NCBI GenBank assembly: GCA_038874435.1
Contig: JAVZCK010000006.1
Span: 37,332-101,331, forward strand
DNA length: 64,000 bases
Reading direction: 5' to 3'
From: Thermoplasmata archaeon
Lineage (GTDB): Archaea > Thermoplasmatota > Thermoplasmata > Lutacidiplasmatales > SKW197
Shown here piece after piece: positions 540 to 21,820 of this stretch. Within the stretch, counting starts at the first letter, position 1. Each line of letters begins with the position of its first letter. Below the pieces are notes generated by a model. It was not told where the DNA came from, did no database searches, and worked only from the letters and a program-made list of their open reading frames with translations. The position numbers were made by a program, and so were the translations under genes.

Positions 540-2675
540 ATGGAGCCAAAGAAAAGAAAAGGCAGAATGGTCGCAGGCGTGGCGGGTGCAGTGGTAACCA
601 TGCTGGTAATCAGCATGTTGTTGATGATTGTAAGTGTAAGGATGGGAAGTGCAGATGATGTAGAAACGGACCTTGCTGTGAATTCCACTTTGAGCGGAAG
701 TTTAAGTGGGGCTGGCAAGAAGGATTATTACAAGATTGTTGTAAACAGCGGGAGCAAGTTGATTGTGAAAATTGATGGACCAAATGGTGGGAGTGTTGAC
801 TTTGACCTTTACATAAAGAAGGACGGGAAGCCAACAACCTCAAGCTACACTGCAAGGGGTTACACGAGCTCTAGTGATGAGCAGGTGAGCGTGAGCGCGC
901 CTTCAGGCACTTACTATGCAATGGTTTATGCCTATAAGGGCTCTGGCAGTTACACAATTACTGCAACTGTGGAAGGCGGCAATGGAGGTGGTGGCGGTGG
1001 AGACAACGGCAACACGAATAATACCGATCCAAACACTCCATCCCAACTCCAGTTTGATATGCCAGTTACAGGCACACTTGATGCGAGCAAAACAAAAGCA
1101 TACTATTACTTTGATGCACCAAGGGCGGCAGCAAAAATCAAGGTTGTGTTAGACGGCCCAAGTGGTGCTGACTACGACCTTTATGTTAAGAAAGACAGCA
1201 CACCAACAACCTCAAGTTACCTTGTCAGAGGCTACACAAATTCTGCAGATGAAACAGTGCTTATCACTAACCAGACAGTAGATGTAGTCGCTGGAAGATA
1301 CTATGTGCTTGTAAACAGATACTCTGGAAGTGGACAATACACATTAACAGCGAGTTTTGAGACAATTGGTGGTGGAAGTTCTGGAAATAACTCCTCAGAG
1401 TCTGATGTGATTGAACTTCGTGCAGGTGTAGCAGTGACAGGGGCGCTAGATGCAAGCCATGCAAAAGAATACTACAAAATTACAGTGAGCTCAGGCACAG
1501 CACTCAAGGTGGTGCTGGATGGTCCAAGCGGTGCTGACTTTGATTTGTATGTGAAAAAGGGTGCGATGCCCACAACCTCAAGCTATGATGTTCGTGGATA
1601 CACAAATTCCGCTGATGAGCAGGTAAGTGTGAGCAATCCTTCTGGAACTTACTACATCATGGTAAACAGGTACTCTGGCTCTGGCAGTTACACAATCACT
1701 GCAAATGTTGACACTGGAAATAATGGTGGTGGCAACAACCCAAATGGTGATGACGACGGGGATGGACTTACAAACGCAAAAGAGACAGAACTTGGCACAA
1801 ATCCAAACAACCCAGATACAGATGGAGATTATATTCCAGATGGAATTGAAGTAAACATGTATGGCACAGACCCAACAAACAAGCAGTATGAAGCTCAATC
1901 CGCAAAAACACCATGGTCTGGATATTGGTGGCCAATGAAGGACAATGGGACCGCAGAGCCGTGTGCAAAGTACGATGCTTATGTGAACAAAACAAGGGGC
2001 TATAATCCACAAGCAGAAAAATGGGAGAAAGAACACCATGGGTGGAGCCCGAATGTGCAGTCATGGTGGGGACACTGCCATGCCTGGAGTGCAGCAGCAG
2101 TGAGTGAGGATGAGCCCACTCATTCGAAGACAGTGCAGGGGATTACATTCACAGTTGGGGACTTGAAGGGTCTGCTTACAGAATCTTACTACTCCTCTTC
2201 CTGTGACCTCTTTGTTGGCACAAGGTACAACGGGCCTTCAAACAATGTCCAGGATGTGCTGCCTAAGGACTTCCATATAACATTGCTGAAATGGATAGGA
2301 ACAAAGAAGAAAGCAGTGGTAATGGACATCACTGCCACTGAAGAGGTCTGGAACTACCCTGCCTACAAATACACAATGACCGTGAGCAATGACACACAGG
2401 ACAGCAGCAAGAAGCACTTTGTTGTAAAAGTGTGGTTTGCAGATGATGGGGTCTGGAAGGACTATGTAGGCACGAAGACGTTCACAATCACCTACAAGTA
2501 CTGGCTTAAATTCAGCACTAACGGAATAACTGATGGGGCATGGGAAGGCGGAAGTGAGAACACAAATGCAGATGCCCAGGCACATCCAGACTTCATCTGG
2601 CATCCAAGTGGTCCGGGAGTGGACTGGGGCTGTCAACTCAGGTATGAAATCGTAAAAGAAATCATCAACGCATAA
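540..2675 (+). CDS. secreted/anchored protein with 3 tandem PPC (pre-peptidase C-terminal, 'DFDLYV') domains, thrombospondin-type-3-like Ca-binding Asp repeats, and a C-terminal putative Cys-protease/transglutaminase-like domain
   Basis: There is an N-terminal basic region plus TM/signal anchor (MVAGVAGAVVTMLVISMLLMIV). Three ~100-aa repeats each contain 'DFDLY(I/V)KK...PTTSSY...GYT.S.DE.V...SGTYY..V..Y.GSGSYT(I/L)TA'. A 'DDDGDGLTNAKETELGTNPNNPDTDGDYIPDG' block follows. The C-terminal domain carries a 'WWGHCHAWSAAAV' motif that resembles the G-x-C-x-x-W/F-A/S catalytic Cys motif of papain/transglutaminase-like folds. Confidence 0.55.
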   Translation: MEPKKRKGRMVAGVAGAVVTMLVISMLLMIVSVRMGSADDVETDLAVNSTLSGSLSGAGKKDYYKIVVNSGSKLIVKIDGPNGGSVDFDLYIKKDGKPTTSSYTARGYTSSSDEQVSVSAPSGTYYAMVYAYKGSGSYTITATVEGGNGGGGGGDNGNTNNTDPNTPSQLQFDMPVTGTLDASKTKAYYYFDAPRAAAKIKVVLDGPSGADYDLYVKKDSTPTTSSYLVRGYTNSADETVLITNQTVDVVAGRYYVLVNRYSGSGQYTLTASFETIGGGSSGNNSSESDVIELRAGVAVTGALDASHAKEYYKITVSSGTALKVVLDGPSGADFDLYVKKGAMPTTSSYDVRGYTNSADEQVSVSNPSGTYYIMVNRYSGSGSYTITANVDTGNNGGGNNPNGDDDGDGLTNAKETELGTNPNNPDTDGDYIPDGIEVNMYGTDPTNKQYEAQSAKTPWSGYWWPMKDNGTAEPCAKYDAYVNKTRGYNPQAEKWEKEHHGWSPNVQSWWGHCHAWSAAAVSEDEPTHSKTVQGITFTVGDLKGLLTESYYSSSCDLFVGTRYNGPSNNVQDVLPKDFHITLLKWIGTKKKAVVMDITATEEVWNYPAYKYTMTVSNDTQDSSKKHFVVKVWFADDGVWKDYVGTKTFTITYKYWLKFSTNGITDGAWEGGSENTNADAQAHPDFIWHPSGPGVDWGCQLRYEIVKEIINA

Positions 2676-5238
2676 ACTTTTTTTCCAATTCTTCTTTTGC
2701 CTCCTGTACTTCTTTTTCTAATCCAATTTTTGCAGCTTCATTGAGGGCTTCCTCAATTGCTGATCTAAATTTTTCTTCATCACCCTTCTCTGCATATGCC
2801 TCCGCAATATCAATTTGGTTATATACCAACATCCATTTGTCCCCTGTTTTCTTGCAGAGACGCTTAACCTCAAGATAGAGCGAAAGTGCCTTTTCAATTT
2901 CACCAATTTCAAAATAAACATTTCCCAGATTGTTCTTTGCAATTGCAATACCTGCAAGGTCATGAACTATTTCTTTCATTTCCACTGTCTTCTCAAGACA
3001 TTTTCTTGCATTCCCGAAATCCTCCAATTCATAGTAAACCATTCCAAGGTTGTTGTAAACTTGGGAAAGCCCTTGTTTGTCGTTGTTTCTAGCAAAAATT
3101 TCCTCAGCCATTCTCAGGTTAGCAATGCTCTCATCGTAGTTTCCCAAGTAGTAGTAAGTGGAGCCAATTCGGGTATAGCAGTTTCCAGCATCTTTTTCCA
3201 TTCCATGTTTTGTGAAAAATTCTAGGGCTTTTTCCTGGCATTCAATCGCATTCTTATAATTACCTGCTCGTTCATGAATGTAACCCTTGATTGTAAGCAG
3301 GCGCGTGATTTCTCCTGCTGCAGTAGAGGATGTACCAGTAATAACTTCAAATGCTTTGTTTATACTTTCCATTGCTTTTTCATGCTCGCCCATCTTAAGA
3401 TAAACCTCTGCCCTAGTTGCATAGGTTCTCCCAAGTTCTGCACCAGGCTCTCCCAGGAGAGAAATCTTCTCGTCCAAAACTTTCATTGCATCCTCGTAGA
3501 GTCCAGACGCAAGATAAATCTCAAGAATCTTATTCAGGGTTTTCAAGGCAATCTCAAAATCTTGGACATCCTTCTTGTTCAACGTTGTAAAAAGCGCCTT
3601 CAAAATCTCTATAGCTTCATCGTATGCGAATCTGCCAACAAGTTTCTCAGCAACCAAAAATCCATGCTCTTTCAACTTATCCAGACGTTTTGCCTTCCTA
3701 TAATGGTAAAGTGCATCAATTATCTTTTCTTCATCACCCTTTTTGTACTCCGCCTCCAGAATTCCACCAAGCATTTCATGAAGAGCAGTTCTGAGTTCAT
3801 CACCCATCTCCTGGTATATCACATCTCTAATTCTAGTAGGGTCAAATCTATATTTGCCTTCCTCGTGCTTTATCAGTCCATGAATCTTCTCGATTCTAGA
3901 CAATGCTCTGAGAAGCTTTATTTTCTCCATGTCAACCATTTTTTCTAGCAATGGAGTGACAAACTCGGTTCCAAGAACACTAGCTGTTTCAAGCACCTCA
4001 AACTCCTCATCACTCAACCTGGTAATTTTCTCCCTTATTATCTCATAGATTCTTTCTGGGATTTTTATTTCTTCTCGATCATACGTCCACAATCCTCCCT
4101 CTTGTCTGAGCAGTTGCTTATCAGTAAGATACTTCAGCAGCTCAATTACAAAGAGTGGGTTTCCCTCTGTTTCAGAGTACACTTTTTCCTTAAAACTTTC
4201 GTCCACATGCCCTCCAAGAACGCACTCTATCAACGCGGCAACACCCTCTCTATCTAGTGGAGCAAGAGTCAAAACTTCGATTAGATTTTCAGACCGCATT
4301 GTATTTATCATCCCAGGTAAGACACTCGTAGTTGGAATTTCATCTGTTCTAATTGCACATAGCACCCCAACCTTTTCTGAAGCAATATCCCTACCAATGT
4401 AGCTGAGAAGAGAAAGAGAAGAACTGTCTGCCCAATGTAAGTCATCAATGAGTATGAGCACTGGCTTTTTCATAGCCATTCTTTTGATTCCACGAAGCAC
4501 ATTTTCAAAAATGCCTGCCTTTTTATCTGCAGTTTCCAGTGCCACCTTAGTGTATTTGTCAGATTCAACAAGTTCTCTGAGCATCACTGTGACTTCATCA
4601 ATATCTGTATCCAATGCATTAGGATTATTGTCTATTTTATCAACTAGTTTTTTCATGTCTTCTAGCAGATATTCGTTTTCAACGCCTTCAACCAATGCAA
4701 CAAGATTCACAACTCTACCAGGTAAGCTCACTATCGTAAACTCACCGTGCCGCATCACTCCAATTTTTTCCTCAATTTCTTTGTGATTTTGGCCAGCAAT
4801 CTGAGTCATCGAATCCTTTATGAAATTTTCAACCGCTGTTACCATTCCAAGAAAAATGTCAGGGTCTATGTTTTTCAAGGTCTTCTCGTGTTTTGAAAGG
4901 ATTATGCCTCCTTTATTTACCAGATAAAGAGCATCTAAGTTTGGGCATGTCTCTGAAAGTAAATGATCTAGATCTGCAGATTTAAGCATGCTGTAAAATG
5001 GTGCTAGTGGCAAGGCAGCACCAGGTAGGCACTTAGTATGAAGAACGCAGAAGTTCTCTTCCTCTGCCTTCTTCTTTACTTCTTCAAGCAATCTAGTTTT
5101 TCCCACTCCTCCCTCTCCCTGAATCAGAAAAATGCTACCGGCTCCATTTGCCGTCTTCCTAATGAGCCGATCTAGATAAGAAATTTCCTTTGTTCTGTCT
5201 ACAAATGCTGGGGGTAGGTTGAGTGCAATCGTCATCAA
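2665..5238 (-). CDS. STAND/AAA_16-type NTPase with C-terminal TPR repeat array; about 100 aa Roadblock/LC7-like insertion between Walker A and Walker B
   Basis: Walker A 'IQGEGGVGKTRLLEEV' and Walker B 'VLILIDDLHWAD' are present. The spacing between them is unusually long and contains 'ALYLVNKGGIILSK...DPDIFLGMVTAVENF...GEFTIVSLPGRVVNLVALVEG'. This aligns by eye to the Roadblock protein at 17075-17434. The C-terminal ~450 aa are TPR-like (repeated A/Y/G/N..Y..A...Y..A patterns, e.g. 'GNYDESIANLRMAEEIF', 'EDFGNARKCLEKTVEM'). The gene overlaps the 3' end of the 540-2675 gene convergently by 11 nt. Confidence 0.7.
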   Translation of the reverse strand: MMTIALNLPPAFVDRTKEISYLDRLIRKTANGAGSIFLIQGEGGVGKTRLLEEVKKKAEEENFCVLHTKCLPGAALPLAPFYSMLKSADLDHLLSETCPNLDALYLVNKGGIILSKHEKTLKNIDPDIFLGMVTAVENFIKDSMTQIAGQNHKEIEEKIGVMRHGEFTIVSLPGRVVNLVALVEGVENEYLLEDMKKLVDKIDNNPNALDTDIDEVTVMLRELVESDKYTKVALETADKKAGIFENVLRGIKRMAMKKPVLILIDDLHWADSSSLSLLSYIGRDIASEKVGVLCAIRTDEIPTTSVLPGMINTMRSENLIEVLTLAPLDREGVAALIECVLGGHVDESFKEKVYSETEGNPLFVIELLKYLTDKQLLRQEGGLWTYDREEIKIPERIYEIIREKITRLSDEEFEVLETASVLGTEFVTPLLEKMVDMEKIKLLRALSRIEKIHGLIKHEEGKYRFDPTRIRDVIYQEMGDELRTALHEMLGGILEAEYKKGDEEKIIDALYHYRKAKRLDKLKEHGFLVAEKLVGRFAYDEAIEILKALFTTLNKKDVQDFEIALKTLNKILEIYLASGLYEDAMKVLDEKISLLGEPGAELGRTYATRAEVYLKMGEHEKAMESINKAFEVITGTSSTAAGEITRLLTIKGYIHERAGNYKNAIECQEKALEFFTKHGMEKDAGNCYTRIGSTYYYLGNYDESIANLRMAEEIFARNNDKQGLSQVYNNLGMVYYELEDFGNARKCLEKTVEMKEIVHDLAGIAIAKNNLGNVYFEIGEIEKALSLYLEVKRLCKKTGDKWMLVYNQIDIAEAYAEKGDEEKFRSAIEEALNEAAKIGLEKEVQEAKEELEKKFMR

Positions 5239-7088: not shown

Positions 7089-7922
7089 TTATTTCTTCTT
7101 TTTCTCTTTCTTTGGTTTTGATGTTTGGGTTATATGATTAGGACAGTTTGTGTTCAACGGGACTTCAAGAACTTCGAACACGTTCCTATACCCATCGTAG
7201 TAAATCAAGTTGTAAGGCAATGCATCATACTCTTTTGAGATTATCTTTATCCCACAGAGGACCTGAAGAGCAGAAATTACCGCGGTAGTTGTGATTTCTG
7301 CAGGCAATTTCGGAGAATAAATCGTCACATCCTCTCTGCCTGAACATGAGAAGATTTGCTCAAGGTTCTTGAAATGGGTTTTGTTCATCCCGCATTCGAT
7401 ACAAGCAGTTTTTGGAGGGAGTACCACCTGGACTTTGCCTGATGTACCTAGGGTACCTCCATCTACAAGTGGAATCCCATAATAATAAGCATGAGAATTA
7501 ATGTATAGCCGTGCCATGATATTGTCTAAGCATCCAAATATAATATCAAACTCCTTGAGAAAATTCTCAGGCAGTTCCTGAATTGGCTTAGAATACCAAG
7601 AAACACGAACTGTTTTATCCAGTTTCTTCAATTCTCTTGCAAGCACTTCTGCCTTCAGCAGCCCTTTCTCAGCATCCTCAATTCTAAAGAGGGCACATCT
7701 GCTTAAATTGGATTTCACAATTTTGTCCATGTCTACTATCGCAATATTCTTGAAACCGGAAAGTACTAGATTTTTTCCTACCTCATTGCCAAGGGCACCC
7801 GCACCAACAACAAGTACCTTACTCTTCTGAATTAAGTTGAATTTTATCCACGGAATCCTCTTCTCTCTATCAAACATGTCTTCGTCGTGCATTCCGACCT
7901 TCAACACTTTATCTGCCGTCAT
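7089..7922 (-). CDS. E1-like ubiquitin/Ubl-activating enzyme (ThiF/MoeB/HesA family adenylyltransferase)
   Basis: Rossmann nucleotide-binding 'KVLVVGAGALGNEVGKNLVLSGF', 'IVDMDKIVKSNLSRC' (E1 Arg-finger/NLxRQ-like), catalytic Asp region 'FGCLDN', and a Zn-binding Cys cluster 'CIECGMNK...SCSG...NCPNH'. The start ATG lies 1 nt after the JAMM gene's TAA stop. Lys-rich C-terminal tail. Confidence 0.8.
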   Translation of the reverse strand: MTADKVLKVGMHDEDMFDREKRIPWIKFNLIQKSKVLVVGAGALGNEVGKNLVLSGFKNIAIVDMDKIVKSNLSRCALFRIEDAEKGLLKAEVLARELKKLDKTVRVSWYSKPIQELPENFLKEFDIIFGCLDNIMARLYINSHAYYYGIPLVDGGTLGTSGKVQVVLPPKTACIECGMNKTHFKNLEQIFSCSGREDVTIYSPKLPAEITTTAVISALQVLCGIKIISKEYDALPYNLIYYDGYRNVFEVLEVPLNTNCPNHITQTSKPKKEKKKK

Positions 7923-7923
7923 C

Positions 7924-10563
7924 TTAACCTCCCTGTGCTTTTTTGAATCCCTTCTTCTCGAGTTTCCTCAAAATTTCTTCTGCCTCTTCTTTTTCTTTAA
8001 GAATTTCTTCTTTTTGCTTTTTCAACTTCTCCATCACCTTTTCTGCATTGGATTTTACCTCAAGGAATTTCTTTACTGCAGGAGCAAGTTCTTTTTCAAC
8101 TCTCTCCACAACTTCCTTCACAATTTCAGTTTTCAGCGCTTCCTGGGGTACCTTCTTCCCAAGCAACTCGGTTATCACAGTTTCAAGCTCAGCCCTCATC
8201 CTTTTAAGCGTCTCTCTCTCATTCTCCAAGTTATTCTTTTCCTCCAGTAATGCCTGGGTCTTCAATTCAATTTCGTGGAGCATGTCTTCAACATTCTTCT
8301 TCTCTTTCTCCACTTCCTCCTTCTTTGTATTAACCATTGCTTCAAGTTCATCCATCTGTTTCTTCCTAGCTGCAAATTCTTTTCCCATTTCATCAATAAC
8401 AGCAAGGTCTTTAGCTATCTCAGCCTCCTTCTTTTTCACTATCTCCTCCCTTTCACTTATCTCCTTTTCTCTCCTCTCAACTTCCATGACTTTTCTTTCT
8501 ACATACTCCTCTTTCTCAGCCAGGACTCTTTCTCTTTCTGTCAGAGTTGCTTCATATCTTGTGATCTTGTCAACACGCTGATTGTATTCCTTTCTCGCCT
8601 CCTCAATCTGCACGCGCTCTAATGTCATAGCTTTCTCTTGCTCAGAAATCACTGCTTCTCTCTCCCTCAGCTCCTTCTCTTTCTCCGCCAATCTCAGATT
8701 TATCGCTTTCAGTTTTTCTTCCTCTCCACGAATAAATTCTTCTTTTTCGTAGAGCACTTTTTCCTTGTCCTCTATTGCTACTTTCCTAGCTTCAAGTTCC
8801 TGCTTGACACGAATAACATCGTTCTCTTCCTTCTTCAATCTTTCTCGGGTCTCACTCAATTCAATTGCTTTCGCATTAGTTTGCTCAATTGCTTTGGAGA
8901 GAGCAATTTTTGTTTGATCTAGCTCCTCACTCTTTGCAGATGTTTCAGCTAACATCTGATTAAGTTGACGTTCTTTCTCCTCTAGTTGTGCAGCAAGAAC
9001 CCTAGCACGGTCCTCTTCTGCCTTCAACCATTCTTCTTTTTCTCGAATTATTTTCTCCTTCTCAGCAAGCATCGTTGCCATCATCGCTTGCTCCGTCGCC
9101 TTTGTATCAACTTCTCTTTTCTCTCTTTCCAGTTCTTCCATCAGCTTAATAAATTTTTCAACCTTCTCCTTCTCTCCAGTTTCTTCTTTGAGCGACTGGA
9201 TCGCATCGAGAATCCATTTTTCTTTTAAATTCAGTTCTTTTTCTTTTATTCTTATTTCCTCCCTTATCTGTCTCAACTCCTTTAAATCCGTTTCTATTTT
9301 TTTCTGCATTTCTGCGGGCATGGTAGCAATGTTCTGGGGGTATTCTTGAGCTTCTTTCAACCTTTCCTCCCACTGCCTCAATTCTTCAAACTTTGCGTTC
9401 AAAGCATTTCGTTCCATCTCCAGCTGATACATTTGAACTGTAAGATTTTCCTCACGCTTTCTGAAATCCTGCGACATTGCTTCAAATGCCTGAATTTTTG
9501 CATTTAGTTCAATCCCAATTTGTTTGATTCTCTCTTCCTCTGTTTTTAACCAGTTTTCCCACTCTGTAAGCTCTGCAATCTTCTTGTTGATATCGGAGTA
9601 ATTCTCTTGAAGTTTGTTCTCTCGCATTTTAAGGTCTTCTTCCCATACATAAAGGTCGCTTTCCTTTGTTTTCAGTGCTTCCTCTTTCTCAGCAAGTTCG
9701 TTTTTCAAATTCTCCAGTTCTCTATACTTCTCACTCAACGTAGCCAAAGAGTCTTCTATGCTGGGCATCTCAAATTCATATTTGCAATTCGGACAGATTT
9801 CTTCTGTAAAGCCAACCTCCGCTTTGCACCTAGGACAAATTTTTGTCTCGTCATCAGTATGTTCTTTTTTCTTAAGCATTTTTTTCTTTTTAACTGGGTA
9901 CTGTATTTTTCCCATCTCTGTCTTCCATTTTCCACAATCATAGGGTTTCTGTAATTCCTCCCAGAATATTGCATAAGGGCGGAGGTAATAATCCATGTCC
10001 TTAACACCAAACACAGCGAACTCCTCATTTATTGGGTCCACAACTATTGCAGAGTGATATTCATGTGGAAACATCTTGGTCTGGGTTGAGATGTCTGTGC
10101 TAGAGAGAAAACATGTATGACCTGGATGTGAATGGTACCAACCAACAAGGATGTAATCAAAAGGAATCTCATCTAGTTGCTCAAACAATTTCTCATATCC
10201 TTCCTTATCGAATTTCACATGAACAGCACTAGCATCCAGATCTGATGTCACAATGTCTCTCACTACTGCATAAACTTTACCATCGTATTTATACACATCC
10301 CCCAAAAGAAAACCCATTACTTCCAGAGTCTGTGATTTGTACTTCATCGCATGGAGAAGAATCTTTTCTTCAGCATTCTTAGAAATATATACATCAAAAA
10401 TTTTTGAGGATTCAATTGTTTTCTTGAACAGCTCAAATCCTTCTTTTGAAGCCCATTCATGGGGTGCTAAATACTCATACTGTGGTGGTTCTTTATTCGA
10501 AATTTCTTTTTTGCTTTCGCCCACAATCTTAGGCTTTTCCCTCGCCATCTTCTGCTCCTCCAA
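7924..10563 (-). CDS. JAMM/MPN+ metalloisopeptidase (Rpn11/AMSH-like deubiquitinase-type) fused to a Zn ribbon and a ~600-aa coiled-coil region
   Basis: The N-terminal ~200 aa carry the conserved Glu ('LEVMGFLLGD') and the complete JAMM motif 'HSHPGHTCFLSSTD' (H-x-H-x7-S-x2-D). A Zn ribbon 'CPRCKAEVGFTEEICPNCKYEF' follows. The remainder is E/K/L-rich heptad-like sequence (ELENLKNELAEKEEALK...), i.e. a long coiled coil. The protein ends '...KKAQGG'. It overlaps the E2 gene 3' end by 35 nt. Confidence 0.85.
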   Translation of the reverse strand: MEEQKMAREKPKIVGESKKEISNKEPPQYEYLAPHEWASKEGFELFKKTIESSKIFDVYISKNAEEKILLHAMKYKSQTLEVMGFLLGDVYKYDGKVYAVVRDIVTSDLDASAVHVKFDKEGYEKLFEQLDEIPFDYILVGWYHSHPGHTCFLSSTDISTQTKMFPHEYHSAIVVDPINEEFAVFGVKDMDYYLRPYAIFWEELQKPYDCGKWKTEMGKIQYPVKKKKMLKKKEHTDDETKICPRCKAEVGFTEEICPNCKYEFEMPSIEDSLATLSEKYRELENLKNELAEKEEALKTKESDLYVWEEDLKMRENKLQENYSDINKKIAELTEWENWLKTEEERIKQIGIELNAKIQAFEAMSQDFRKREENLTVQMYQLEMERNALNAKFEELRQWEERLKEAQEYPQNIATMPAEMQKKIETDLKELRQIREEIRIKEKELNLKEKWILDAIQSLKEETGEKEKVEKFIKLMEELEREKREVDTKATEQAMMATMLAEKEKIIREKEEWLKAEEDRARVLAAQLEEKERQLNQMLAETSAKSEELDQTKIALSKAIEQTNAKAIELSETRERLKKEENDVIRVKQELEARKVAIEDKEKVLYEKEEFIRGEEEKLKAINLRLAEKEKELREREAVISEQEKAMTLERVQIEEARKEYNQRVDKITRYEATLTERERVLAEKEEYVERKVMEVERREKEISEREEIVKKKEAEIAKDLAVIDEMGKEFAARKKQMDELEAMVNTKKEEVEKEKKNVEDMLHEIELKTQALLEEKNNLENERETLKRMRAELETVITELLGKKVPQEALKTEIVKEVVERVEKELAPAVKKFLEVKSNAEKVMEKLKKQKEEILKEKEEAEEILRKLEKKGFKKAQGG

Positions 10564-11071
10564 CTATCTTTGGAGCATGTTCTGTCTTTGTCTTCTCTAC
10601 AATTACTGGAGGTTTGTACGGATGCTTTTCAAAATACTCTGCGGCCTTCTGGCATGCCTCACTACCAAGAGGATTGCCTGGGTTAGGATTTGAAAGAAGT
10701 GTCTCAAGTCCCTTTATGAACATTAAGAGCGTAGACTGTGGGGTCCATGTGTCGAACAGCTTGGTACAGACATAGCCTCCTTCATGTGGGGGCATTATAT
10801 TCGGATGAAATATCGGACTGAGCCATCTTACAATCGGCTTCTGATATGGATACTGAGCCGTAATAATAATTTTCACTTTGTGGGTATATCTAGTAGTCAC
10901 TTTACCTTCCCAGAGAAATGGTCCAGGCGTTTTCACAAATGTGAGGTCTATTTCTATCGGAAAGTTGGATAAGCTACTGTCTGAAACAGAGAGTATGTGC
11001 CTTAGCTCTTTCTTGCACGTAAGGATTTCATTATACAATCTTTGCCTCAATACTTCGATAGGAAGCGGCAC
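10529..11071 (-). CDS. ubiquitin-conjugating enzyme E2 (UBC fold), GTG start
   Basis: 'YPYQKPIVRWLSPIFHPNIMPPHEGGYVCTKLFDTWTPQSTLLMFIKGLETLLSNPNPGNPLGSEACQKAAEYF' matches the UBC core nearly residue-for-pattern: Y-P...P, the HPN motif, the catalytic Cys about 10 residues later, W-(S/T)-P, LL..PNP..PL...A. The start codon is GTG (11069-11071), preceded by a GAGGGGGA Shine-Dalgarno. Confidence 0.85.
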   Translation of the reverse strand: MPLPIEVLRQRLYNEILTCKKELRHILSVSDSSLSNFPIEIDLTFVKTPGPFLWEGKVTTRYTHKVKIIITAQYPYQKPIVRWLSPIFHPNIMPPHEGGYVCTKLFDTWTPQSTLLMFIKGLETLLSNPNPGNPLGSEACQKAAEYFEKHPYKPPVIVEKTKTEHAPKIVGGAEDGEGKA

Positions 11072-11086
11072 ATCTGATTCCCCCTC

Positions 11087-12154
11087 TCAACATCCGCCTT
11101 CTGGGTCAGGTATAAGCTCCATTAAGTCCCCGTCTCTTATATCTGCTTCCTCCACCTTGGTCTCACCACGAAGTATGCGCTTTCCCTTGCGGAGCACATA
11201 CACACCAATGTTCTTTTCCCAGTAGGTTCCCACACTTTCTATGATCTCGTCTATTGTGTTGTCCGGCTCAAGTTCCATGTCCAGCGAAGCACCTGTCTCA
11301 GCATCACGCACTTTCACTCTTATCGACATTTCTTCCACCACCTTTTTCTTTTTTACAGTTTCTTCTTTTTCTGCCTCACTTGAAAGTAATCGGAATTTTT
11401 GCATGATGAGTTCAAAACTCTCTTTTTTTGTCTCTTCAGATTCCACAAGTTCTTCCTCCTCTTCCTCCTCACCTTTGGGTTCACTTATTCCGGCTTTTTT
11501 ATAATCTATAACCTCCAGGTATTGTTTCAATGTCTCAATTTCCTTCTTGCTCAGGACAATCGGTGAAACATGGACAATGAACACACCATTGTTCACTGAA
11601 ACCATGTCAACTACACCTTTCACAAAATCAATCACCTTTTCAAAACCGTTGGCTGTTATGAGAAGTCCGATTGCATCCAGAATGATTGCTGGTTTTGAAT
11701 TGTTTTTAACAAATTCACCGATGATGTAAGTCATCTCAAACTCCAATCGCTGCGGGTCCAAGGTCTTTTCCTTGGTCAATGTTGATGTAAGCCAGTATAT
11801 TTCCTCAATGTTTACATTGTACCTCTTTCTAATCTTTCTAGGATTGCTTTTTGTGAGACATAATCCTGCAAATCCAGCATCTAGTAAGTCCTTGAACAAC
11901 CTATAGGCAAGATTTTCATCCTCTGCGATGTAACTTCCACCCGTCTCCAAAAAGCTTGTGGGTTTCGAGGAAGCAAATCTAGCACCACAGTGAGGACAGA
12001 CTTCATCTAGTTCTCCAACCTCTCCGTTGCATTTGGGGCAGAGAAACACCTCTTCAAATAGTTCCTTTCCGCAAGAGGGACAAATAGTAGAGTCCTTTGG
12101 AATATTTTTACCGCAATAAGGACACTTCGTGGTTTCTGAAGTTTCGGGTGTCAT
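11087..12154 (-). CDS. double zinc-ribbon + DUF835-like domain protein with C-terminal ubiquitin-like beta-grasp domain ending Gly-Gly-Cys
   Basis: N-terminus 'CPYCG..x10..CPSCG..x10..CPKCN..x10..CPHCG' (four CxxC pairs). The middle domain resembles the C-terminal domain of the 20651-21820 protein. The last 80 aa 'MSIRVKVRDAETGASLDMELEPDNTIDEIIESVG...RILRGETKVEEADIRDGDLMELIPDPEGGC' parallel ubiquitin (MQIFVKT...VEPSDTIENVKAKI...LRLRGG) and terminate in GG followed by a single Cys. Confidence 0.75.
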   Translation of the reverse strand: MTPETSETTKCPYCGKNIPKDSTICPSCGKELFEEVFLCPKCNGEVGELDEVCPHCGARFASSKPTSFLETGGSYIAEDENLAYRLFKDLLDAGFAGLCLTKSNPRKIRKRYNVNIEEIYWLTSTLTKEKTLDPQRLEFEMTYIIGEFVKNNSKPAIILDAIGLLITANGFEKVIDFVKGVVDMVSVNNGVFIVHVSPIVLSKKEIETLKQYLEVIDYKKAGISEPKGEEEEEEELVESEETKKESFELIMQKFRLLSSEAEKEETVKKKKVVEEMSIRVKVRDAETGASLDMELEPDNTIDEIIESVGTYWEKNIGVYVLRKGKRILRGETKVEEADIRDGDLMELIPDPEGGC

Positions 12155-12224: not shown

Positions 12225-13511
12225 TCAAATAAAGCTGTCAAGAGTTGGCTGAGAATTTCTCCCTTTTTTCACTTCCACTCTTTTCGTTGTTCTGACTTCC
12301 TCTAGATTTTCCTGAGTACTGACCTCCACATCTGGAATTACGATTTCTCCATATTGCCCACCACCACCGGGTTTAACAATAACCTTCCCTGCTCTGAACG
12401 CCTCAATTGCCCTAACAACCTCCAGCGGTGCTACTCTGTTTATCTCCTCCATTTCTGCATCAATCAATATTCTCACTTCATTACCAAACTTGCTGATTAA
12501 TCCTTCCCAGATTTCTATAACCTTTTTGCTGTTTGGAGAACTCCCCAATGCCTTGGCAATTATTTCCGTAAGTGGGATTATGTGAATATATTTCGGTCTA
12601 TGTGAAGGCGACCTAGGTTCTGGATAAGTCGCAAGTTCCTCAACTCTATCTCGAACACCCTTCTTTATTCTTCCTCCACATCTGCACTTCCATCCTTTTC
12701 TCTTTGCCTCATTTAGCGTGTAATGGGTATAGCATTTTATGCAGGCACTTTCATTGTATTTTCCTTCCTCTGGTGGTACTCCAACATTCAGCACAACGCA
12801 CCTGCCTTTCTTGCGAAGAAGGGCCATACCCACCTCCTCAAAAGTCGGTTCTTCTACCTCCATACGCATGAATTCTCTGGCTAGGCGAAGGGGCCAAGGA
12901 GAATGGGCATCGGAATTTGTGAGGAATGTCATGTTTTGAAGTTCTGCAATTCTGTCAGCGTAAGAGGTGTCTGCACTTAACCCTAGCTCAATGTAGCCAA
13001 CATAGTCCACGAGGTCTCCGTAACACTCTTTCAGCGAATCAAATGCAGCATACACCGAAGTCCATGGCGTAAAAGCATGGCAGGGACCAATGAGCACATT
13101 GCATGTTTTTGCGATTTCTGCAATCTCAGCACCGTTGCCATGAAATCTTGGCCTCCCATCGGTCATAAGGTCTGAGACCTTTGAGATTATCTTTTCCGAG
13201 AATTCCTCTACCTTTGAAATTGAAGGGAAGATTAGCAGGTGATGAACCCTGTCACTGTCCTCTACCTCACAAGTTAAAATTACTCTCAAATTCCCAATCT
13301 CAAAAGTGCCTTCATCCACTTTTTTTAGTGCCTTTATTTCTTCAAGCCACCTAGGGTGGAGACAATCCCCTGAGCCAATCAAATTTATTCCTTTCTGGCT
13401 TGCCCCCTTCGCCAGATTCCGCATATTCATCACATCACTTGTACCTCCGGAATAGCGGCTGTGAATGTGTAAGTCAGCATTAATTTCCATTTTTAACAAC
13501 CTCTTTTCCAA
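12225..13511 (-). CDS. PHP-domain protein with C-terminal Cys4 zinc finger (Endonuclease Q / TIGR00375-like)
   Basis: PHP signature 'ADLHIHSRYSGG', with further His/Asp ligands (TNSDAHSP). C-terminal 'CIKCYTHYTLNEAKRKGWKCRCGG' Zn finger, then 'PGGGGQYGEIV'. The architecture matches archaeal EndoQ-type PHP proteins. Confidence 0.55.
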   Translation of the reverse strand: MEKRLLKMEINADLHIHSRYSGGTSDVMNMRNLAKGASQKGINLIGSGDCLHPRWLEEIKALKKVDEGTFEIGNLRVILTCEVEDSDRVHHLLIFPSISKVEEFSEKIISKVSDLMTDGRPRFHGNGAEIAEIAKTCNVLIGPCHAFTPWTSVYAAFDSLKECYGDLVDYVGYIELGLSADTSYADRIAELQNMTFLTNSDAHSPWPLRLAREFMRMEVEEPTFEEVGMALLRKKGRCVVLNVGVPPEEGKYNESACIKCYTHYTLNEAKRKGWKCRCGGRIKKGVRDRVEELATYPEPRSPSHRPKYIHIIPLTEIIAKALGSSPNSKKVIEIWEGLISKFGNEVRILIDAEMEEINRVAPLEVVRAIEAFRAGKVIVKPGGGGQYGEIVIPDVEVSTQENLEEVRTTKRVEVKKGRNSQPTLDSFI

Positions 13512-13845
13512 AAATTACATTGATTCCATGGATTTCCACCACATAAACGAAGAGAAGGCACCCAATTCCAAGAAACGCAATGGGCAACGAAAGCGTAGGT
13601 ATAAGGTAAAGAAAGGCAGTGGCCAGGAGCGAATCCGCAAACGCTAAAATTCCCCACACAAGCAACGCTTCTTTCCTTTGCCTTACCACTCGTGCAAACA
13701 CACCTGTAATCCCAAGTGGCTCAGATTTCCTTCTAGGGTCTGTACTTGCAAACGCTGAGAAAAAAGGGCTAACAAAAAACGCAAAAAATAAAATTAGAAG
13801 CAACAAAAAGAAGTATATGTCCATCCCTATGTTGGTAATGCTCAT
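13480..13845 (-). CDS. small membrane protein (3 TM), unknown function
   Basis: Hydrophobic 121-aa ORF lying between the P-type ATPase and PHP genes on the same strand. It overlaps both neighbours by a few to 32 nt. No motif. Confidence 0.35.
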   Translation of the reverse strand: MSITNIGMDIYFFLLLLILFFAFFVSPFFSAFASTDPRRKSEPLGITGVFARVVRQRKEALLVWGILAFADSLLATAFLYLIPTLSLPIAFLGIGCLLFVYVVEIHGINVIFGKEVVKNGN

Positions 13846-16556
13846 ACTTCCTCCTTGAGAGTTCGCATTAAATACTTCCGAGTTTCATCCACACAGATTA
13901 GAATGATTCCAAGCAAAAAGATAGTCAGCCAGTCAATTGTTCTGATAGGAATCGTTCGAAATGTTGAATTCATGAATGGTGCGTAGACCGCAAAAACCTG
14001 AAGTAGTATTGCAAGGACTATTGTTATCAACAACAGACGATTGTTCATTTTCAAACTGAACAGGGACTCTCGCAGATTCCTGCAGTTGAGTGCACTGTAC
14101 ATCTGGAATATGACAAATGCACTGAAGGTCATTGTCTGGGCATAGGCCTCTCTGGTAATTTGGCTGCCCATGTAGTCTGCAGGTGCAAAATTGTAGGAAT
14201 ACCAGAATACGAAAAGCGTTAAAAACGCCATTGCAAGCCCGTTCACGAGAATTGCGGATACCATCTCTTTTGAAAGAATGTGTTCTTTCGGGTTTCTGGG
14301 CTTGTGCTTCATAATCTTCTTTGTCGCAGGTTCCAGTCCTAGAGCTTGAGCAGGTGGACCATCAATCAGTATGTTAACCCATAGAATCTGGACTGGGTAA
14401 AGCGGAATCACACCAGGAACTGTGAAAATTGCAAGGAAAACGAGTGTCGTTGCCCCGATGTTCGTAGTTATCTGGTACCTAACAAACTTTCTAATATTTT
14501 CATAAACCTTTCTTCCTTCCTCAACTGCTTTCACAATTGTTGCAAAGTTGTCGTCGGCCAGCACAATTCCACTTGCATCTTTCGCTACATCTGTGCCAGT
14601 AATTCCCATAGAAATCCCTATGTCTGCATTTGCAAGGGCAGGTGCATCGTTCACGCCATCGCCAGTCATTGCCACTACATGACCTCGTTTCTTGAATGCA
14701 CGAACAATCTTCAACTTCATTTCTGGTTGCACACGGGCATAGACACTGACTTCTTCCACGATTTTAGCAAGTTCATCGTCGCTCATTTTCTCAAGTTCAC
14801 TGCCTGTAAGAATTTTTCCACTCCAGATTCCCAACTGTTTTGCAATTGCTATTGCAGTGTCTTTCTGGTCTCCTGTTATCATTACCACTTTAATTCCTGC
14901 TTCATGACATGTCTTGATTGCTTCCTTCACTTCTGGCCTCGGAGGGTCTATTATTCCTACAAGCCCTACGAATGTCATGTTGCTCTCCAGTTCTTCCACA
15001 TCATCTGGGATTTGCCCTACTTCCTTATAACCTAGAGCCAGAACCCTATAACCCATTGAGGCCATCCGTTTGTTTGCCTTTTCTATAGCTGCACGGAGTT
15101 CGGCAGAAAGTGGCAAAACTTTCCCATTATGCCAGATGTTTGTAGAAAGTGAAAGAATAACCTCTGGTGCACCCTTGATGTGAACCACTTTTTTACCATC
15201 TACTTCATTTATTGTACTCATTATCTTTTTCTTAGGGTCAAAAACCTTTTCATAAATCCGTTTGTATTTTGTATAGTATTGTTTCGGTACAAGCCCTATC
15301 TTACCAGCAAGTGCAAGAAGTGCCCCTTCTGTTGGGTCTCCTATTACCGTCCAAACATTTTTTTCTTCCATCAGGTTTGCATTGTTGCAGAGCACACCAA
15401 TTCTTGCCAACAACTGAAGGGTCTCCTTGTGCTCATTGTATCTCTCAACTTCTCCTTTTGGTTCATACCCTGTGCCACTTACCACCAGAAGCTCGCCATC
15501 CACAAAAACTTCCTTCACAGTCATCTGATTTTTTGTAAGGGTGCCTGTTTTGTCAGTACAAATTACTGATGTACAACCAAGGGTCTCTACACACATCAAG
15601 CGGCGCACAATTGCATTCCTCTTTGCCATCACCTGCATACCTATTGCCAGGGTAACGACAAGCACAATTGGAAGACCTTCTGGAATTATTGCTACAGCTA
15701 AGCTTATCGCAAGCAAAAAGTTCTGAGAAAGATGTGTTTGAGAGATTGCTGTTGCTGTGAAAAAGAGGAGTGCGGAAATTGCAATCGCAATGTAACCAAT
15801 CTGCTTGCCCAGTGTATCAATGCTCTTCTGTAGTGGGGTTTCTTCTCCTTCACTCTCCTGCACCAGCTTTGCAATTTTTCCAAGTTCTGTTGCCATTCCT
15901 GTATTAACCACTACTCCCTTTGCCCTGCCTCTCGCTAGGATTGTTCCCATATATACCAAATTCCTTCTATCCCATTTTTCAGCATCTTCAGAGCATGGCT
16001 GAGCATCCTTCTGGACTGTAACGCTTTCTCCAGTGAGCATTGACTCGTCAACTTCTACATTTGTGGTTTCTATGAGACGAAGGTCTGCAGGCACTTTGTC
16101 TCCTTCTTCCAGCACAACAATGTCCCCTACCACCACATTCTCCACAAGAATCTCCTGGCATCTACCATCTCTTATTACTTTGGTCTTAGGAGCAGTCATT
16201 CTTTTAAGGGCTTCCATGGCCTTCTCTGCTCTTGCTTCCATCATGTAGCCCATTACTGCATTTATCGTGATTGCAATAATAATAGCTGCAGTATCAGAAA
16301 GATGGTTTTCTTCTGTAAAAATTGTCAAAAGAACGGTAATGACTGCAGCAACTATGAGCATGATAATAGGTATGCTCTTAAACTGATTCAAAAATTTAAT
16401 AACTGGATGTTCCTTTTTTTTCTCAGCAAGCAGATTTTTGCCTTTTGACAATCGCCTGTTTGCTTCCTGAGATGTGAGGCCCTGATCCAGAGAAGTTTTT
16501 AACTCCTTCATTATCTCAATCGTGGTCATTGCATGCCATGAGCGTCGCGTTCCCAT
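13842..16556 (-). CDS. P-type cation-transporting ATPase, type IIA (SERCA/PMCA-like Ca2+ ATPase)
   Basis: 'ICTDKTGTLT' phosphorylation motif, 'MTGDGVNDAPAL' hinge, 'IPEGLP' in M4, 'TGES' actuator motif, 10 TM pattern. 904 aa. The probable true start is the 'MTTIEIMKEL' Met, 9 codons in. Confidence 0.9.
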   Translation of the reverse strand: MGTRRSWHAMTTIEIMKELKTSLDQGLTSQEANRRLSKGKNLLAEKKKEHPVIKFLNQFKSIPIIMLIVAAVITVLLTIFTEENHLSDTAAIIIAITINAVMGYMMEARAEKAMEALKRMTAPKTKVIRDGRCQEILVENVVVGDIVVLEEGDKVPADLRLIETTNVEVDESMLTGESVTVQKDAQPCSEDAEKWDRRNLVYMGTILARGRAKGVVVNTGMATELGKIAKLVQESEGEETPLQKSIDTLGKQIGYIAIAISALLFFTATAISQTHLSQNFLLAISLAVAIIPEGLPIVLVVTLAIGMQVMAKRNAIVRRLMCVETLGCTSVICTDKTGTLTKNQMTVKEVFVDGELLVVSGTGYEPKGEVERYNEHKETLQLLARIGVLCNNANLMEEKNVWTVIGDPTEGALLALAGKIGLVPKQYYTKYKRIYEKVFDPKKKIMSTINEVDGKKVVHIKGAPEVILSLSTNIWHNGKVLPLSAELRAAIEKANKRMASMGYRVLALGYKEVGQIPDDVEELESNMTFVGLVGIIDPPRPEVKEAIKTCHEAGIKVVMITGDQKDTAIAIAKQLGIWSGKILTGSELEKMSDDELAKIVEEVSVYARVQPEMKLKIVRAFKKRGHVVAMTGDGVNDAPALANADIGISMGITGTDVAKDASGIVLADDNFATIVKAVEEGRKVYENIRKFVRYQITTNIGATTLVFLAIFTVPGVIPLYPVQILWVNILIDGPPAQALGLEPATKKIMKHKPRNPKEHILSKEMVSAILVNGLAMAFLTLFVFWYSYNFAPADYMGSQITREAYAQTMTFSAFVIFQMYSALNCRNLRESLFSLKMNNRLLLITIVLAILLQVFAVYAPFMNSTFRTIPIRTIDWLTIFLLGIILICVDETRKYLMRTLKEEV

Positions 16557-20650: not shown

Positions 20651-21820
20651 GTGGAAAAGTTGATGCTGACATGGTATGCGATACCCCCAGTAATTGCCAT
20701 ATCAATATTTGCAGCCCTGCTTGTGTGCTTTGCTAGATTAAGGACTAGCATTCACTATTCCGCATTTCTTTATGCATTTTTGTTCTTTCTGTGGAGTTTA
20801 GGAGAACTTATTGAAAGGTCAGCGGGTCCGCCTCCCAACGACATGGAAATTGCACTTCTTGGATTGAAAATTATTGCGATTGCAGGTGCATTTTTACCTG
20901 CTACCCTTGTGCATTTTGCATCTGAGTTCCCAGTTCATCAGGACAATGTTCCCAGGGCCGGGATCGGCCTGCTTTATGTGGTGAGTGCTATTACTGCTTT
21001 CCTCTCAGCAGGCACGAATTTTCTTGTTGAAGGTTTGATTGTTTATGAGCCGGGTTGGGGTGCTGACTTCGGAGTGGGAATGTATGTATGGGGAACTTAT
21101 ACCATTTTAGGGACTATAATTGCGATATGGCTGCTAGAAAAAAGTTCTTTTAAATTACAGTCAAGTGCCGGGAGAAGCCAAGCAAGAATTATAGGAATTG
21201 CCCTTGCGATTTCACTCTGTTGTGCTACACTTACTGGCTATGTACCTCCACTTCTTGGTACCGAAGACATATATCCTCTTACTACAATCCCGTTTGCAAT
21301 TACTGGCGTACTGATGCTCCACACATTTCTGAAATATCATCAACTTATTCGGTTCTCTGTAAAACTTCCCAGGTCTAAAAAATTGGAAACAGGTTACTTT
21401 TGGTGCACTGACGGGGATTATGCTAGGAAATATTTTTTTGGGATTGCTCAGGCACTGGGAAGTGCACTTTTCGTTACCACGGACCCAAACATTCCCGAGG
21501 AAATCCACAAATCGGCAAGGGTAATTCTGCTGGCAAAGGATGGGGATTTGAACCCGTTGGACGAGGACAAAATGCGGATGTTCACTTTTCTCATTGAAAA
21601 ATTTGTTTCGCAGGAAGAAAGGGCAGTTGTACTTCTCGAAGGATTTGATGATTTGCTGGCACATTATTTCTACTCCACAATTTCTGTACCTGATATGCTT
21701 GAGGAAATCAGGAAATGTGCGGCAAGATACAATGCTAAGATAATCTGTGTAATAAACCCAGATATTCTTGAGGACTGGCAAATAGAGGAGATAAAGAAAG
21801 GAGGGAAGCCATTAAAGTAG
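20651..21820 (+). CDS. polytopic membrane protein (about 7 TM) with cytoplasmic DUF835-like C-terminal domain
   Basis: The N-terminal 230 aa are hydrophobic helices. The C-terminal domain 'AVVLLEGFDDLLAHYFYSTISVPDMLEEIRKCAARYNAKIICVINPDILEDWQIEEIKK' is similar in pattern to the middle domain of the Ubl-carrier protein at 11087-12154. GTG start at 20651; the alternative ATG is at 20663. Confidence 0.55.
   Translation: MEKLMLTWYAIPPVIAISIFAALLVCFARLRTSIHYSAFLYAFLFFLWSLGELIERSAGPPPNDMEIALLGLKIIAIAGAFLPATLVHFASEFPVHQDNVPRAGIGLLYVVSAITAFLSAGTNFLVEGLIVYEPGWGADFGVGMYVWGTYTILGTIIAIWLLEKSSFKLQSSAGRSQARIIGIALAISLCCATLTGYVPPLLGTEDIYPLTTIPFAITGVLMLHTFLKYHQLIRFSVKLPRSKKLETGYFWCTDGDYARKYFFGIAQALGSALFVTTDPNIPEEIHKSARVILLAKDGDLNPLDEDKMRMFTFLIEKFVSQEERAVVLLEGFDDLLAHYFYSTISVPDMLEEIRKCAARYNAKIICVINPDILEDWQIEEIKKGGKPLK

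Follow-up and report, generated by a model that had tools for sequence, protein, structure and literature searches.

A Rpn11-like JAMM peptidase with a zinc ribbon and a very long predicted helical rod, encoded in a four-gene ubiquitin-like operon of the Thermoplasmata

We analyzed a 64,000-nucleotide stretch of DNA from a Thermoplasmata archaeon (contig JAVZCK010000006.1 of assembly GCA_038874435.1, positions 37,332 to 101,331 of the forward strand; hereinafter the window), which codes for a JAMM/MPN+ protein whose peptidase head is followed by a zinc ribbon and a C-terminal rod of about 610 predicted helical residues. The gene for this protein stands third in a compact, same-strand operon coding, in this order, for a ubiquitin-like (Ubl) modifier precursor, an E2, the JAMM-rod protein and an E1. 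We consider it fairly probable (about 0.62) that the protein is the Rpn11-like JAMM peptidase of this operon, which would both process the modifier and deconjugate it, and that the rod is a lineage-specific oligomerizing or scaffolding addition. Operon-encoded, eukaryote-like ubiquitin systems of archaea have been characterized mainly in Caldiarchaeum and the Asgard archaea, where they are made of minimal parts. Our results indicate that the Thermoplasmatota carry a widespread Ubl–E2–Rpn11-like–E1 system, and that two small sub-lineages have extended both partners together, adding an inactivated KaiC-like domain to the tag and a very long rod to the protease. The core function of the JAMM-rod protein is predictable, while its added parts are unexplained. 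All positions given below are those of the window and residues are numbered along the 879-codon maximal open reading frame (ORF).

The fusion is not an artefact of assembly. When a single genome of each prokaryotic species was scanned, the same gene was recovered in three metagenome-assembled genomes (MAGs) of Thermoplasmata, namely L001 (89% identical to the window protein), L002 (78%) and L003, which is cut short at a contig end; one more full-length copy (L012, 882 aa) came from other assemblies, as did the partial copies L013, L016, P0269 and P0138. The fusion that the initial annotation of this DNA proposed to look for in other archaeal MAGs is hence present at full length in at least three other Thermoplasmata contigs that were assembled independently (L001, L002 and L012, 72–89% identical) in addition to the truncated ones, and all four full-length copies are collinear, with neither a stop codon nor a frameshift. 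Between these genomes synonymous divergence is saturated (pS 0.8–0.9) and nonsynonymous divergence (pN) is 0.02–0.07 in the JAMM core and 0.07–0.17 in the rod. The alternative, also raised initially, that a frameshift or mis-assembly fused two unrelated genes, one for a JAMM and one for a coiled coil, could appeal to the fact that most members of the family are only 195–225 aa long and that the join lies near the Lys-rich tail at which the stand-alone JAMMs end. Nevertheless, the recurrence of an uninterrupted ORF in independently assembled MAGs and metagenomes (partial in L003, L013, L016 and P0269) despite saturated synonymous sites, the purifying selection on the protein and the presence of the same fusion in the same operon of a distant clade leave this alternative a negligible probability. 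A second concern, that the coiled coil might be a separately conserved gene in relatives, was likewise not borne out: an exhaustive HMMER search of 1.84 billion representatives yielded nothing else matching the rod, and a search of 5.8 billion clusters with aa 236–879 (ribbon and rod) returned only two fragments, both containing a JAMM domain, leading us to reject a stand-alone rod gene. The JAMM–ribbon–rod architecture is thereby confirmed as real, conserved and rare. An exact-sequence look-up of the 879-aa protein found no record.

On the minus strand an uninterrupted frame of 879 codons runs from a TTG at 10563 to the stop codon at 7924–7926. As this TTG sits inside a GGAGGAG motif located 6–8 nt upstream of an ATG at 10548, and as the orthologues are annotated from the same ATG with the N-termini MAREKPK or MAKEKPR, translation most likely begins at the ATG to give a product of 874 aa. 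The coding strand is purine-rich, with GC and AT skews both at −0.37 over 8001–10000, and it is this extreme bias that generates the Ser/Phe-rich ORFs of the plus strand (e.g., 7943..8581), which are by-products and had been rightly set aside as artefacts. The GAA/AAG-rich repeats to which they had been ascribed do not exist as such: tandem and direct repeat searches of 7900–10600 detected only short purine-rich similarities of a compositional kind. With no true DNA repeats in this interval, a recent repeat expansion was ruled out as the origin of the rod.

The identity of the head is plain from several lines of evidence. The Pfam JAB model (PF01398) matches aa 57–163 above its cut-off (E=6e-14), and the catalytic motif is complete (E81, H144-S-H146, S154 and D157) and invariant in an alignment of 58 family members, in agreement with the intact Zn-binding motif recorded in the initial annotation. 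AlphaFold2 (AF2) models the domain with a predicted local distance difference test score (pLDDT) >90 over aa 20–220. Its best solved relatives in sequence and structure are yeast Rpn11, the Caldiarchaeum Rpn11 homologue (CsRpn11) and CSN5: sequence matches of the core to Rpn11 in the PDB reach 1e-13, and Foldseek searches with the head recover Rpn11, CSN5 and CsRpn11 with E of about 1e-9 to 1e-10 and a target-normalised template-modelling (TM) score of about 0.7, the Caldiarchaeum structure 6fnn showing 32% identity at a TM score of about 0.68. The head is followed by a Lys-rich linker, the counterpart of the basic tail in which the stand-alone JAMMs end, and then by the CxxC...CxxC ribbon noticed at the outset, with CPRC at 243 and CPNC at 257 invariant in all close orthologues. 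This ribbon matches no Pfam zinc-ribbon model above threshold (TackOD1 at E=0.005) and is absent from the distant rod-bearing clade described below. By eye, about 11 of its 24 positions (ICPRCKAEVGFTEEICPNCKYEF, 9772..9843) are identical to those of the second ribbon of the operon's Ubl protein (LCPKCNGEVGELDEVCPHCGARF, 11981..12060, minus strand); the likeness may reflect a duplicated module or a shared ligand, such ribbons being all alike anyway.

The structure of the operon is equally clear. The junctions between the E2, JAMM and E1 genes either overlap or are separated by 1 nt, with the ribosome-binding site of each internal gene lying inside the preceding gene. The last 82 residues of the modifier precursor are modeled as a ubiquitin-type β-grasp (AF2 pLDDT 88), whose best Foldseek matches are SUMO, Caldiarchaeum ubiquitin, Hub1 and ubiquitin at a TM score of about 0.8, and this domain is preceded by a double zinc ribbon and a DUF835 domain, which has been described as an inactivated KaiC-like domain (iKaiC) (PMC5847659). 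The E2 is 97–99% identical among the close orthologues, and the E1 matches NCBIfam models of the ThiF/MoeB/Ube1 type, all below their cut-offs. The location of the JAMM gene in a Ubl–E2–JAMM–E1 operon, of which the initial annotation made no mention, makes a role as a Ubl protease much stronger; accordingly, the isopeptidase or processing function initially suggested for the N-terminal domain is credible, as judged from the family match and the genomic context.

Known biochemistry offers a precedent for how such an operon might function. The Caldiarchaeum Rpn11 homologue cleaves pro-ubiquitin exactly after the Gly-Gly and also takes apart conjugates and linear fusions (PMC5654768, PMC6043591). 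By analogy, we posit that the JAMM head would cleave the Ubl precursor at the peptide bond that follows its Gly-Gly, removing 1 residue in the window protein and 1–9 in its relatives, that the exposed Gly-Gly C-terminus would be adenylated by the E1 and carried to targets by the E2, and that the same head would later remove the Ubl from its conjugates. What follows the Gly-Gly of these Ubls varies, being nothing, H, C, I, M, IREGE, LGWQNLYLL or a whole E2, and such variable tails require a processing protease, for which the JAMM of the operon is the obvious candidate. A 249-aa protein from a Logan assembly (P0275) has the Ubl fused straight to the E2 (..ELIPDPTGG|ANLPEDLL..), a linear fusion that a JAMM would have to cut in order to release both parts. 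Since the modifier stays attached to its N-terminal double zinc ribbon and iKaiC domain, the tag would have grown to about 40 kDa, and in step with it the protease would have acquired its C-terminal ribbon and its heptad rod of about 610 residues. The latter most likely serves as an oligomerization or scaffolding element that would keep the protease in dimeric or larger assemblies, perhaps along with the iKaiC-Ubl protein, and would lie outside the catalytic machinery. The C-terminal helices of eukaryotic Rpn11 anchor the enzyme in the proteasome lid, and those of CsRpn11 are dispensable for catalysis (PMC6043591), a parallel which suggests that the rod, too, may be dispensable for catalysis. 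A more elaborate version of this proposal, which we rate as rather unlikely in its full form, has the rod and the iKaiC-Ubl as a co-evolved pair making up a self-contained, E3-less tagging machine, with the Lys-rich rod as a platform, and perhaps an acceptor, for the 40-kDa iKaiC module, which would be linked covalently by way of its Ubl domain and taken off again by the JAMM head.

The wider family places these additions in perspective. The JAMM head has 335 relatives in a clustered database, nearly all of them Thermoplasmatota proteins of 195–225 aa rather than the 130–150 aa given in the initial annotation for single-domain archaeal relatives; common to them are a conserved N-terminal extension (PKIxxExK+E...PP...H.W) and a basic tail. 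Of the 150 best representative clusters, about one in three is longer than 300 aa. Three loci with a stand-alone JAMM display a free Ubl of 62–80 aa, then the E2, then the JAMM, and in the two long contigs the E1 lies close by (in L007 the Ubl is out of view, the contig being cut within the E2 gene). The free Ubls end in PDPEGG or PDPEGGH, and the JAMMs encoded beside them are 212–216 aa long. Identities between the window and these loci are 52–57% for the E2, 47–51% for the E1, 47–54% for the JAMM core and 61–65% for the Ubl domain. In other Thermoplasmatota this basic Ubl–E2–JAMM cluster occupies a conserved chromosomal position beside ribosomal protein genes. Elsewhere in the family the rod is replaced by C-terminal transmembrane (TM-anchor) segments, or there are tandem JAMM domains or a STAND/TPR NTPase module, and some JAMM domains lie at the end of very large proteins; evidently, to go by these architectures, the C-terminus of the family is a hot spot for localization modules. 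The tandem-JAMM and C-terminally anchored forms (P0001, P0007, P0101, P0122, P0126 and P0162; L017) are sometimes encoded in tandem, the context of P0126 being limited to another JAMM–TM-anchor fragment on a 2-kb contig.

A second, distant rod-bearing clade is represented by P0125 (629 aa) and P0128 (634 aa), in which the JAMM head is joined to about 400 heptad-rich residues without a ribbon and the protein ends in ..VWKKAAK. Their loci contain the same operon, with DZR–DUF835–Ubl, E2, JAMM-rod and E1, and BLASTP aligns both proteins collinearly with the window protein into the rod; the rod-to-rod alignment stands at z of about 7 over plain shuffles. The MAGs with a rod-bearing JAMM include JAOAJK01, JBMFNP01, JAWACX01, JAVZEM01, JAVZGA01, JAMDBY01, JBMFRP01 and JBMFVL01. 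Every locus with a rod-bearing JAMM has a DUF835–Ubl protein (the window, L001, L002, L003, L008–L013 and L016), and in a search of 5.8 billion proteins DUF835–Ubl fusions were found only in the rod-bearing clades. In the literature searched we found no paper treating DUF835 or iKaiC together with ubiquitin, and among the papers returned no description of an archaeal JAMM–coiled-coil fusion, a DUF835–Ubl fusion or this operon.

The initial estimate of a ~600-residue segment rich in E, K and L heptads that runs to the C-terminus agrees with the extent of the rod, which spans aa about 267–878 and comprises 23% E, 15% K and 10% L. Its hydrophobic pattern has Fourier power of 2.4–2.6 at periods of 7, 3.5 and 2.33, whereas shuffled sequences average 0.2 and peak at about 1.2; AF2 (mean pLDDT 75) predicts rod helices at 269–406, 417–461, 464–719, 723–801 and 813–878. 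Tracing the register through the 613 rod residues revealed four register shifts, with heptad position a 92% apolar and position d 41% apolar, the latter dropping to 19% in 571–720; only the last 74 residues follow a canonical pattern (0.91 apolar at a and 0.80 at d). The hydrophobic core of the rod is, by this measure, weak and partly charged. All six Trp residues of the rod are invariant across the four sequences, and its N-proximal third and last 34 residues are its best-conserved parts. At the rise of an extended helix, about 0.148 nm per residue, a rod of 613 residues would measure up to about 91 nm if fully extended and about 45 nm if folded back on itself. Searches with Pfam, NCBIfam and PADLOC for a coiled-coil family gave only sub-threshold matches to SMC, Rad50, ASRP, LmuB and HmpF, which we take as compositional.

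Several considerations weigh against the reading of the protein as an operon-specific Ubl protease with a scaffolding rod. What the data show directly is which domains are present, how the operon is built, which parts are conserved or occur together and that a ribosome-binding site overlaps the Gly-Gly codons; the substrate, the cleavage site, the oligomeric state and the role of the rod are all matters that we infer. With only 41% of the d positions apolar, some stretches of the rod may form a weak coiled coil or a lone stable helix instead of a classical dimer, and the AF2 monomer run reached no confident global arrangement (predicted TM score 0.37). The alignment between the rods of the two clades rises only modestly over heptad-preserving shuffles (z=2.9–3.9), and a neighbor-joining tree of the JAMM core joins the two rod groups as sisters with a bootstrap of just 47/100, results that suggest a single origin of the rod but do not prove it; the co-occurrence of rod and DUF835 also rests on few, related lineages. 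Finally, neither the four genes of the operon nor the flanking genes scanned with Pfam contain a RING domain or an E3, the zinc ribbons that are present not being RINGs.

The protein ends in ..KKAQGG*, as had been stated initially, and the resemblance to a Ubl C-terminus calls for an explanation. One would be that the Gly-Gly is functional, being trimmed by the protein's own peptidase and then activated by the E1 and conjugated as a covalent anchor, or acting as an autoinhibitory product mimic in the active site. It is kept in five close sequences with a varying preceding residue and 0–2 residues after it (QGG*, QGG*, QGG*, SGGSS* and GGND*), the variable tails recall those of Ubl precursors and the E1 gene starts immediately downstream. 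The DNA tells otherwise. The junction reads GGA GGT TAA G ATG in the window and in L001, GGA GGC AGC AGT TAA ATG in L002 and GGG GGC AAT GAT TGA TG in L012; i.e., in every close full-length orthologue the Gly codons form a GGAGG-type Shine–Dalgarno motif with the ATG of the E1 5–10 nt after it (5 nt in the window), and the length of the JAMM-rod tail tracks the spacing between the two. Such motifs are in use in this genome (Shine–Dalgarno-like 5-mers precede 12/33 long ORFs in the window versus a background of 8%), and the Gly-Gly in the E2 tail (..VGGAEDGEGKA) is likewise the Shine–Dalgarno motif of the JAMM gene. In the distant clade, the tail VWKKAAK is devoid of Gly-Gly and the ATG of the E1 lies inside its Val-Trp codons. 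Moreover, no β-grasp precedes the Gly-Gly, aa 813–878 being predicted as one helix by AF2, and the tail KKGFKKAQGG is unlike the Ubl tail ELIPDPEGG. The simplest account for all four full-length close orthologues is that the terminal Gly-Gly arises as a side effect of the ribosome-binding site of the E1 gene; because GGAGG and ATG go together in every one of them, a role at the protein level is no longer needed and we regard it as very improbable. We dropped the idea of a Ubl-like end once this pattern was seen in all the orthologue DNA. More generally, where the genes of an operon are tightly packed, a protein may end in Gly-Gly simply because a GGAGG ribosome-binding site is translated in frame, an ending that mimics the C-terminus of a Ubl.

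Two other readings bear on the rod and on the operon as a whole. The rod might be an SMC/Rad50-like antiparallel intramolecular coiled coil of about 45 nm that returns its basic tail to the ribbon and the Lys-rich linker, thereby making the protein a deconjugase tethered to DNA or chromatin. Weak profile matches that run from the ribbon into the rod (SMC at 1.5e-8, the archaea-specific SMC-related protein at 5e-7, LmuB at 7e-6 and Rad50 at 1e-4), the conservation of the two ends of the rod and the presence of a basic linker and a zinc ribbon at its base would fit this picture; so would a dip in AF2 confidence at 569–582, the exact midpoint of the helical part, and register and helix breaks, some of which are roughly mirrored about residue 565–572. 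However, the matches lie far below the curated cut-offs (17–33 bits versus 300–1087 for SMC, Rad50 and ASRP), as is typical of compositional coiled-coil hits, and AF2 monomer runs tend to fold long helices in half anyway. Conservation is also asymmetric, with 32% of the positions invariant in 761–800 as compared to 70–75% in the presumed partner segment, and there is neither an ATPase head nor a hinge nor any detected DNA-binding domain. We therefore see this reading as unlikely.

The other possibility is an antiviral or conflict operon comparable to Bil or CBASS-Cap2/Cap3, in which the rod would be the scaffold of a sensor or effector. Bacterial Ubl–E1–E2–JAB operons are reported to act in phage defense (PMC10557695). 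In the operon studied here the E1 matches CBASS E1-E2 models at 1e-15 and the JAMM matches defense JAB models at 5e-7; furthermore, the family member P0142 is fused to a STAND/TPR NTPase, and a STAND-TPR gene (2665..5238) lies two genes away from the operon. Against this, PADLOC recognizes no system and leaves both the E2 and the Ubl protein unmatched, its E1 and JAB hits being generic domain matches, and the chromosomal setting points elsewhere: the close-clade operon keeps the same neighbors (a P-type ATPase and a TIGR00375 protein), which, like the position of the Ubl–E2–JAMM cluster beside ribosomal protein genes in other Thermoplasmatota, argues for vertical, housekeeping-like inheritance rather than a mobile defense island. 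A defensive function is hence, in our estimate, quite improbable. The preferred reading remains that of a processing and deconjugating JAMM with a scaffolding rod.

Comparison with characterized systems brings out what is shared and what is peculiar to the JAMM-rod protein. CsRpn11 (PDB 6fju, 6fnn) has an MPN+ core that is closest to eukaryotic Rpn11 and its gene adjoins those of a Gly-Gly-ending pro-Ubl, an E1 and an E2, but it is only about 200 aa long with two short C-terminal helices, whereas the window protein displays a 50-aa N-terminal extension, the ribbon and the ~610-residue rod; the operons differ in that the one in the window lacks a RING E3, has its Ubl fused to a double zinc ribbon and DUF835, and follows the order Ubl–E2–JAMM–E1. 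The stand-alone Thermoplasmatota JAMMs (e.g., P0002, P0005 and P0016) share with it the N-terminal extension, a core of 45–55% identity, the basic tail and a Ubl–E2–JAMM neighborhood with orthologous E2, E1 and Ubl. They end, however, at what is the Lys-rich linker in the window protein, are paired with the short free Ubl, and have their E1 encoded upstream instead of immediately downstream. BilABCD and CBASS Cap2/Cap3 contain the same set of Ubl, E1, E2 and JAB, with a JAB that matures and removes the Ubl, whereas the window operon is archaeal, sits in a conserved chromosomal context and combines a single β-grasp fused to iKaiC with a JAB bearing a long rod. The arms of SMC, Rad50 and ASRP resemble the rod in their long, weakly hydrophobic, E/K-rich heptads and in having a CxxC metal site next to the arm; in contrast, the window protein has no ATPase head, hinge or inter-chain zinc hook, its four Cys forming a predicted intrachain ribbon at the base of the rod.

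Among the eukaryotic MPN+ deubiquitinases, BRCC36-Abraxas and AMSH (via its MIT domain) possess helical anchoring elements. In these enzymes, as in Rpn11 of the lid and CSN5, the catalytic domain is joined to helices that place it in a larger assembly and take no part in catalysis; however, those helices run to only tens of residues and form defined bundles with partner subunits, whereas the window protein has a single ~600-residue heptad rod and no MPN− partner subunit encoded nearby. If the rod does organize or localize deconjugation, it would provide a prokaryotic precedent for the deployment of MPN+ deubiquitinases in large assemblies such as the proteasome lid, the signalosome and BRISC, as well as a tractable four-gene system for studying how a protein of 40 kDa serves as a ubiquitin-like tag. 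Should the scaffold of rod and iKaiC-Ubl hold true, it would amount to a reversible, ubiquitin-driven cytoskeleton-like or signaling structure in an archaeon outside the Asgard and TACK groups. The initial annotation had pictured the protein at the membrane or at a division or ESCRT-like apparatus; among the flanking genes scanned, none links the operon to membrane, cell-division or ESCRT functions. A part in localization has a single indirect argument in its favor, the C-terminal transmembrane anchors that other members of this JAMM family bear in place of a rod.

Features of the JAMM-rod gene and its operon in the window (residues numbered from the TTG of the maximal ORF)
Feature	Coordinates	Strand	Evidence
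JAMM–zinc ribbon–helical rod gene, 874 aa plus stop	7924..10548	-	ORF list, upstream GGAGGAG, orthologue starts; maximal ORF reaches TTG 10563
GGAGGAG, Shine–Dalgarno motif of the JAMM gene, within E2 tail codons (..VGGAE..)	10555..10561	-	DNA comparison
Family-specific N-terminal extension (aa 6–55; P11, P26–P27, H35, W37 conserved)	10399..10548	-	Invariant or nearly so in 58-sequence alignment; AF2 pLDDT >90 from about aa 20
MPN+/JAMM catalytic core (aa 56–205), catalytic E81 at 10321–10323	9949..10398	-	Pfam JAB, PDB, Foldseek
Zinc-binding JAMM motif HSHPGHTCFLSSTD (aa 144–157)	10093..10134	-	Pattern match; H144, S145, H146, S154, D157 invariant
Lys-rich linker VKKKKMLKKKEH (aa 224–235)	9859..9894	-	Compared with P0002, P0005, P0016 tails; AF2 pLDDT <50 at aa 226–238
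Predicted zinc ribbon CPRC-x10-CPNC (aa 241–264)	9772..9843	-	Four Cys invariant in close orthologues; AF2 short β elements, pLDDT about 75
Rod segment 1 (aa 269–406), most conserved rod part, invariant Trp	9346..9759	-	pN 0.03 vs 0.02 in JAMM core; 70–78% of positions invariant in four sequences; AF2 helix
Rod segment 2 (aa 417–801), after Pro409/Pro416 break, more variable, charged d	8161..9315	-	AF2 helices; pN 0.10–0.24; d 19–42% apolar
C-terminal predicted helix (aa 813–878), canonical a/d pattern, conserved basic tail	7930..8127	-	a/d 0.91/0.80 apolar; 74% of positions invariant in last 34 residues
GGAGGT, terminal Gly-Gly codons and Shine–Dalgarno motif of the E1 gene (ATG 7920–7922)	7927..7932	-	DNA of four orthologues
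Modifier precursor, 355 aa: double zinc ribbon (aa 7–58), DUF835/iKaiC (aa 78–211), C-terminal ubiquitin-fold domain (11090–11335), ends ..ELIPDPEGG|C	11087..12154	-	Pfam, AF2, Foldseek
E2, UBC fold, FHPN...C motif, FHPNIMPPHEGGYVC	10529..11071	-	Pfam UQ_con E=1e-13; overlaps JAMM gene start
E1-like adenylating enzyme (ThiF family), starts 1 nt after JAMM stop	7089..7922	-	Pfam ThiF E=3e-51

Upstream of the operon lie genes for a TIGR00375/MJ0043_C PHP-type protein (12225..13511, minus strand; E=4e-105), a small ORF (13480..13845, minus) and a P-type cation ATPase (13842..16556, minus). Comparable upstream genes occur in L012–L015, as seen in Pfam-annotated gene calls, and in L001 by ORF length only, and they argue for vertical inheritance of the region. 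On the other side, the STAND protein already mentioned (2665..5238, minus) is an 857-aa combination of an AAA_16 domain with TPRs, and an ORF of the same length, known by length alone, occupies the matching position in L001 (13325..15898). P0142, the 912-aa JAMM of the same family fused to a STAND/TPR module, is found at locus L018. A functional link between STAND/TPR proteins and the JAMM operon is possible on the basis of these architectures and locations.

A second DUF835 protein in the window (20651..21820, plus) has a sensor-type N-terminus of the HisKA_7TM kind, with its DUF835 scoring just below the Pfam cut-off. The genome is rich in zinc-ribbon modules; one 768-aa protein (31804..34110, plus) joins a helix-hairpin-helix domain to several zinc ribbons and to TPR repeats. 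Two predicted surface proteins are encoded farther along, namely a 1642-aa subtilase with Ig-like domains (47925..52853, minus) and a 2169-aa protein with CarboxypepD_reg-like repeats (52946..59455, plus).

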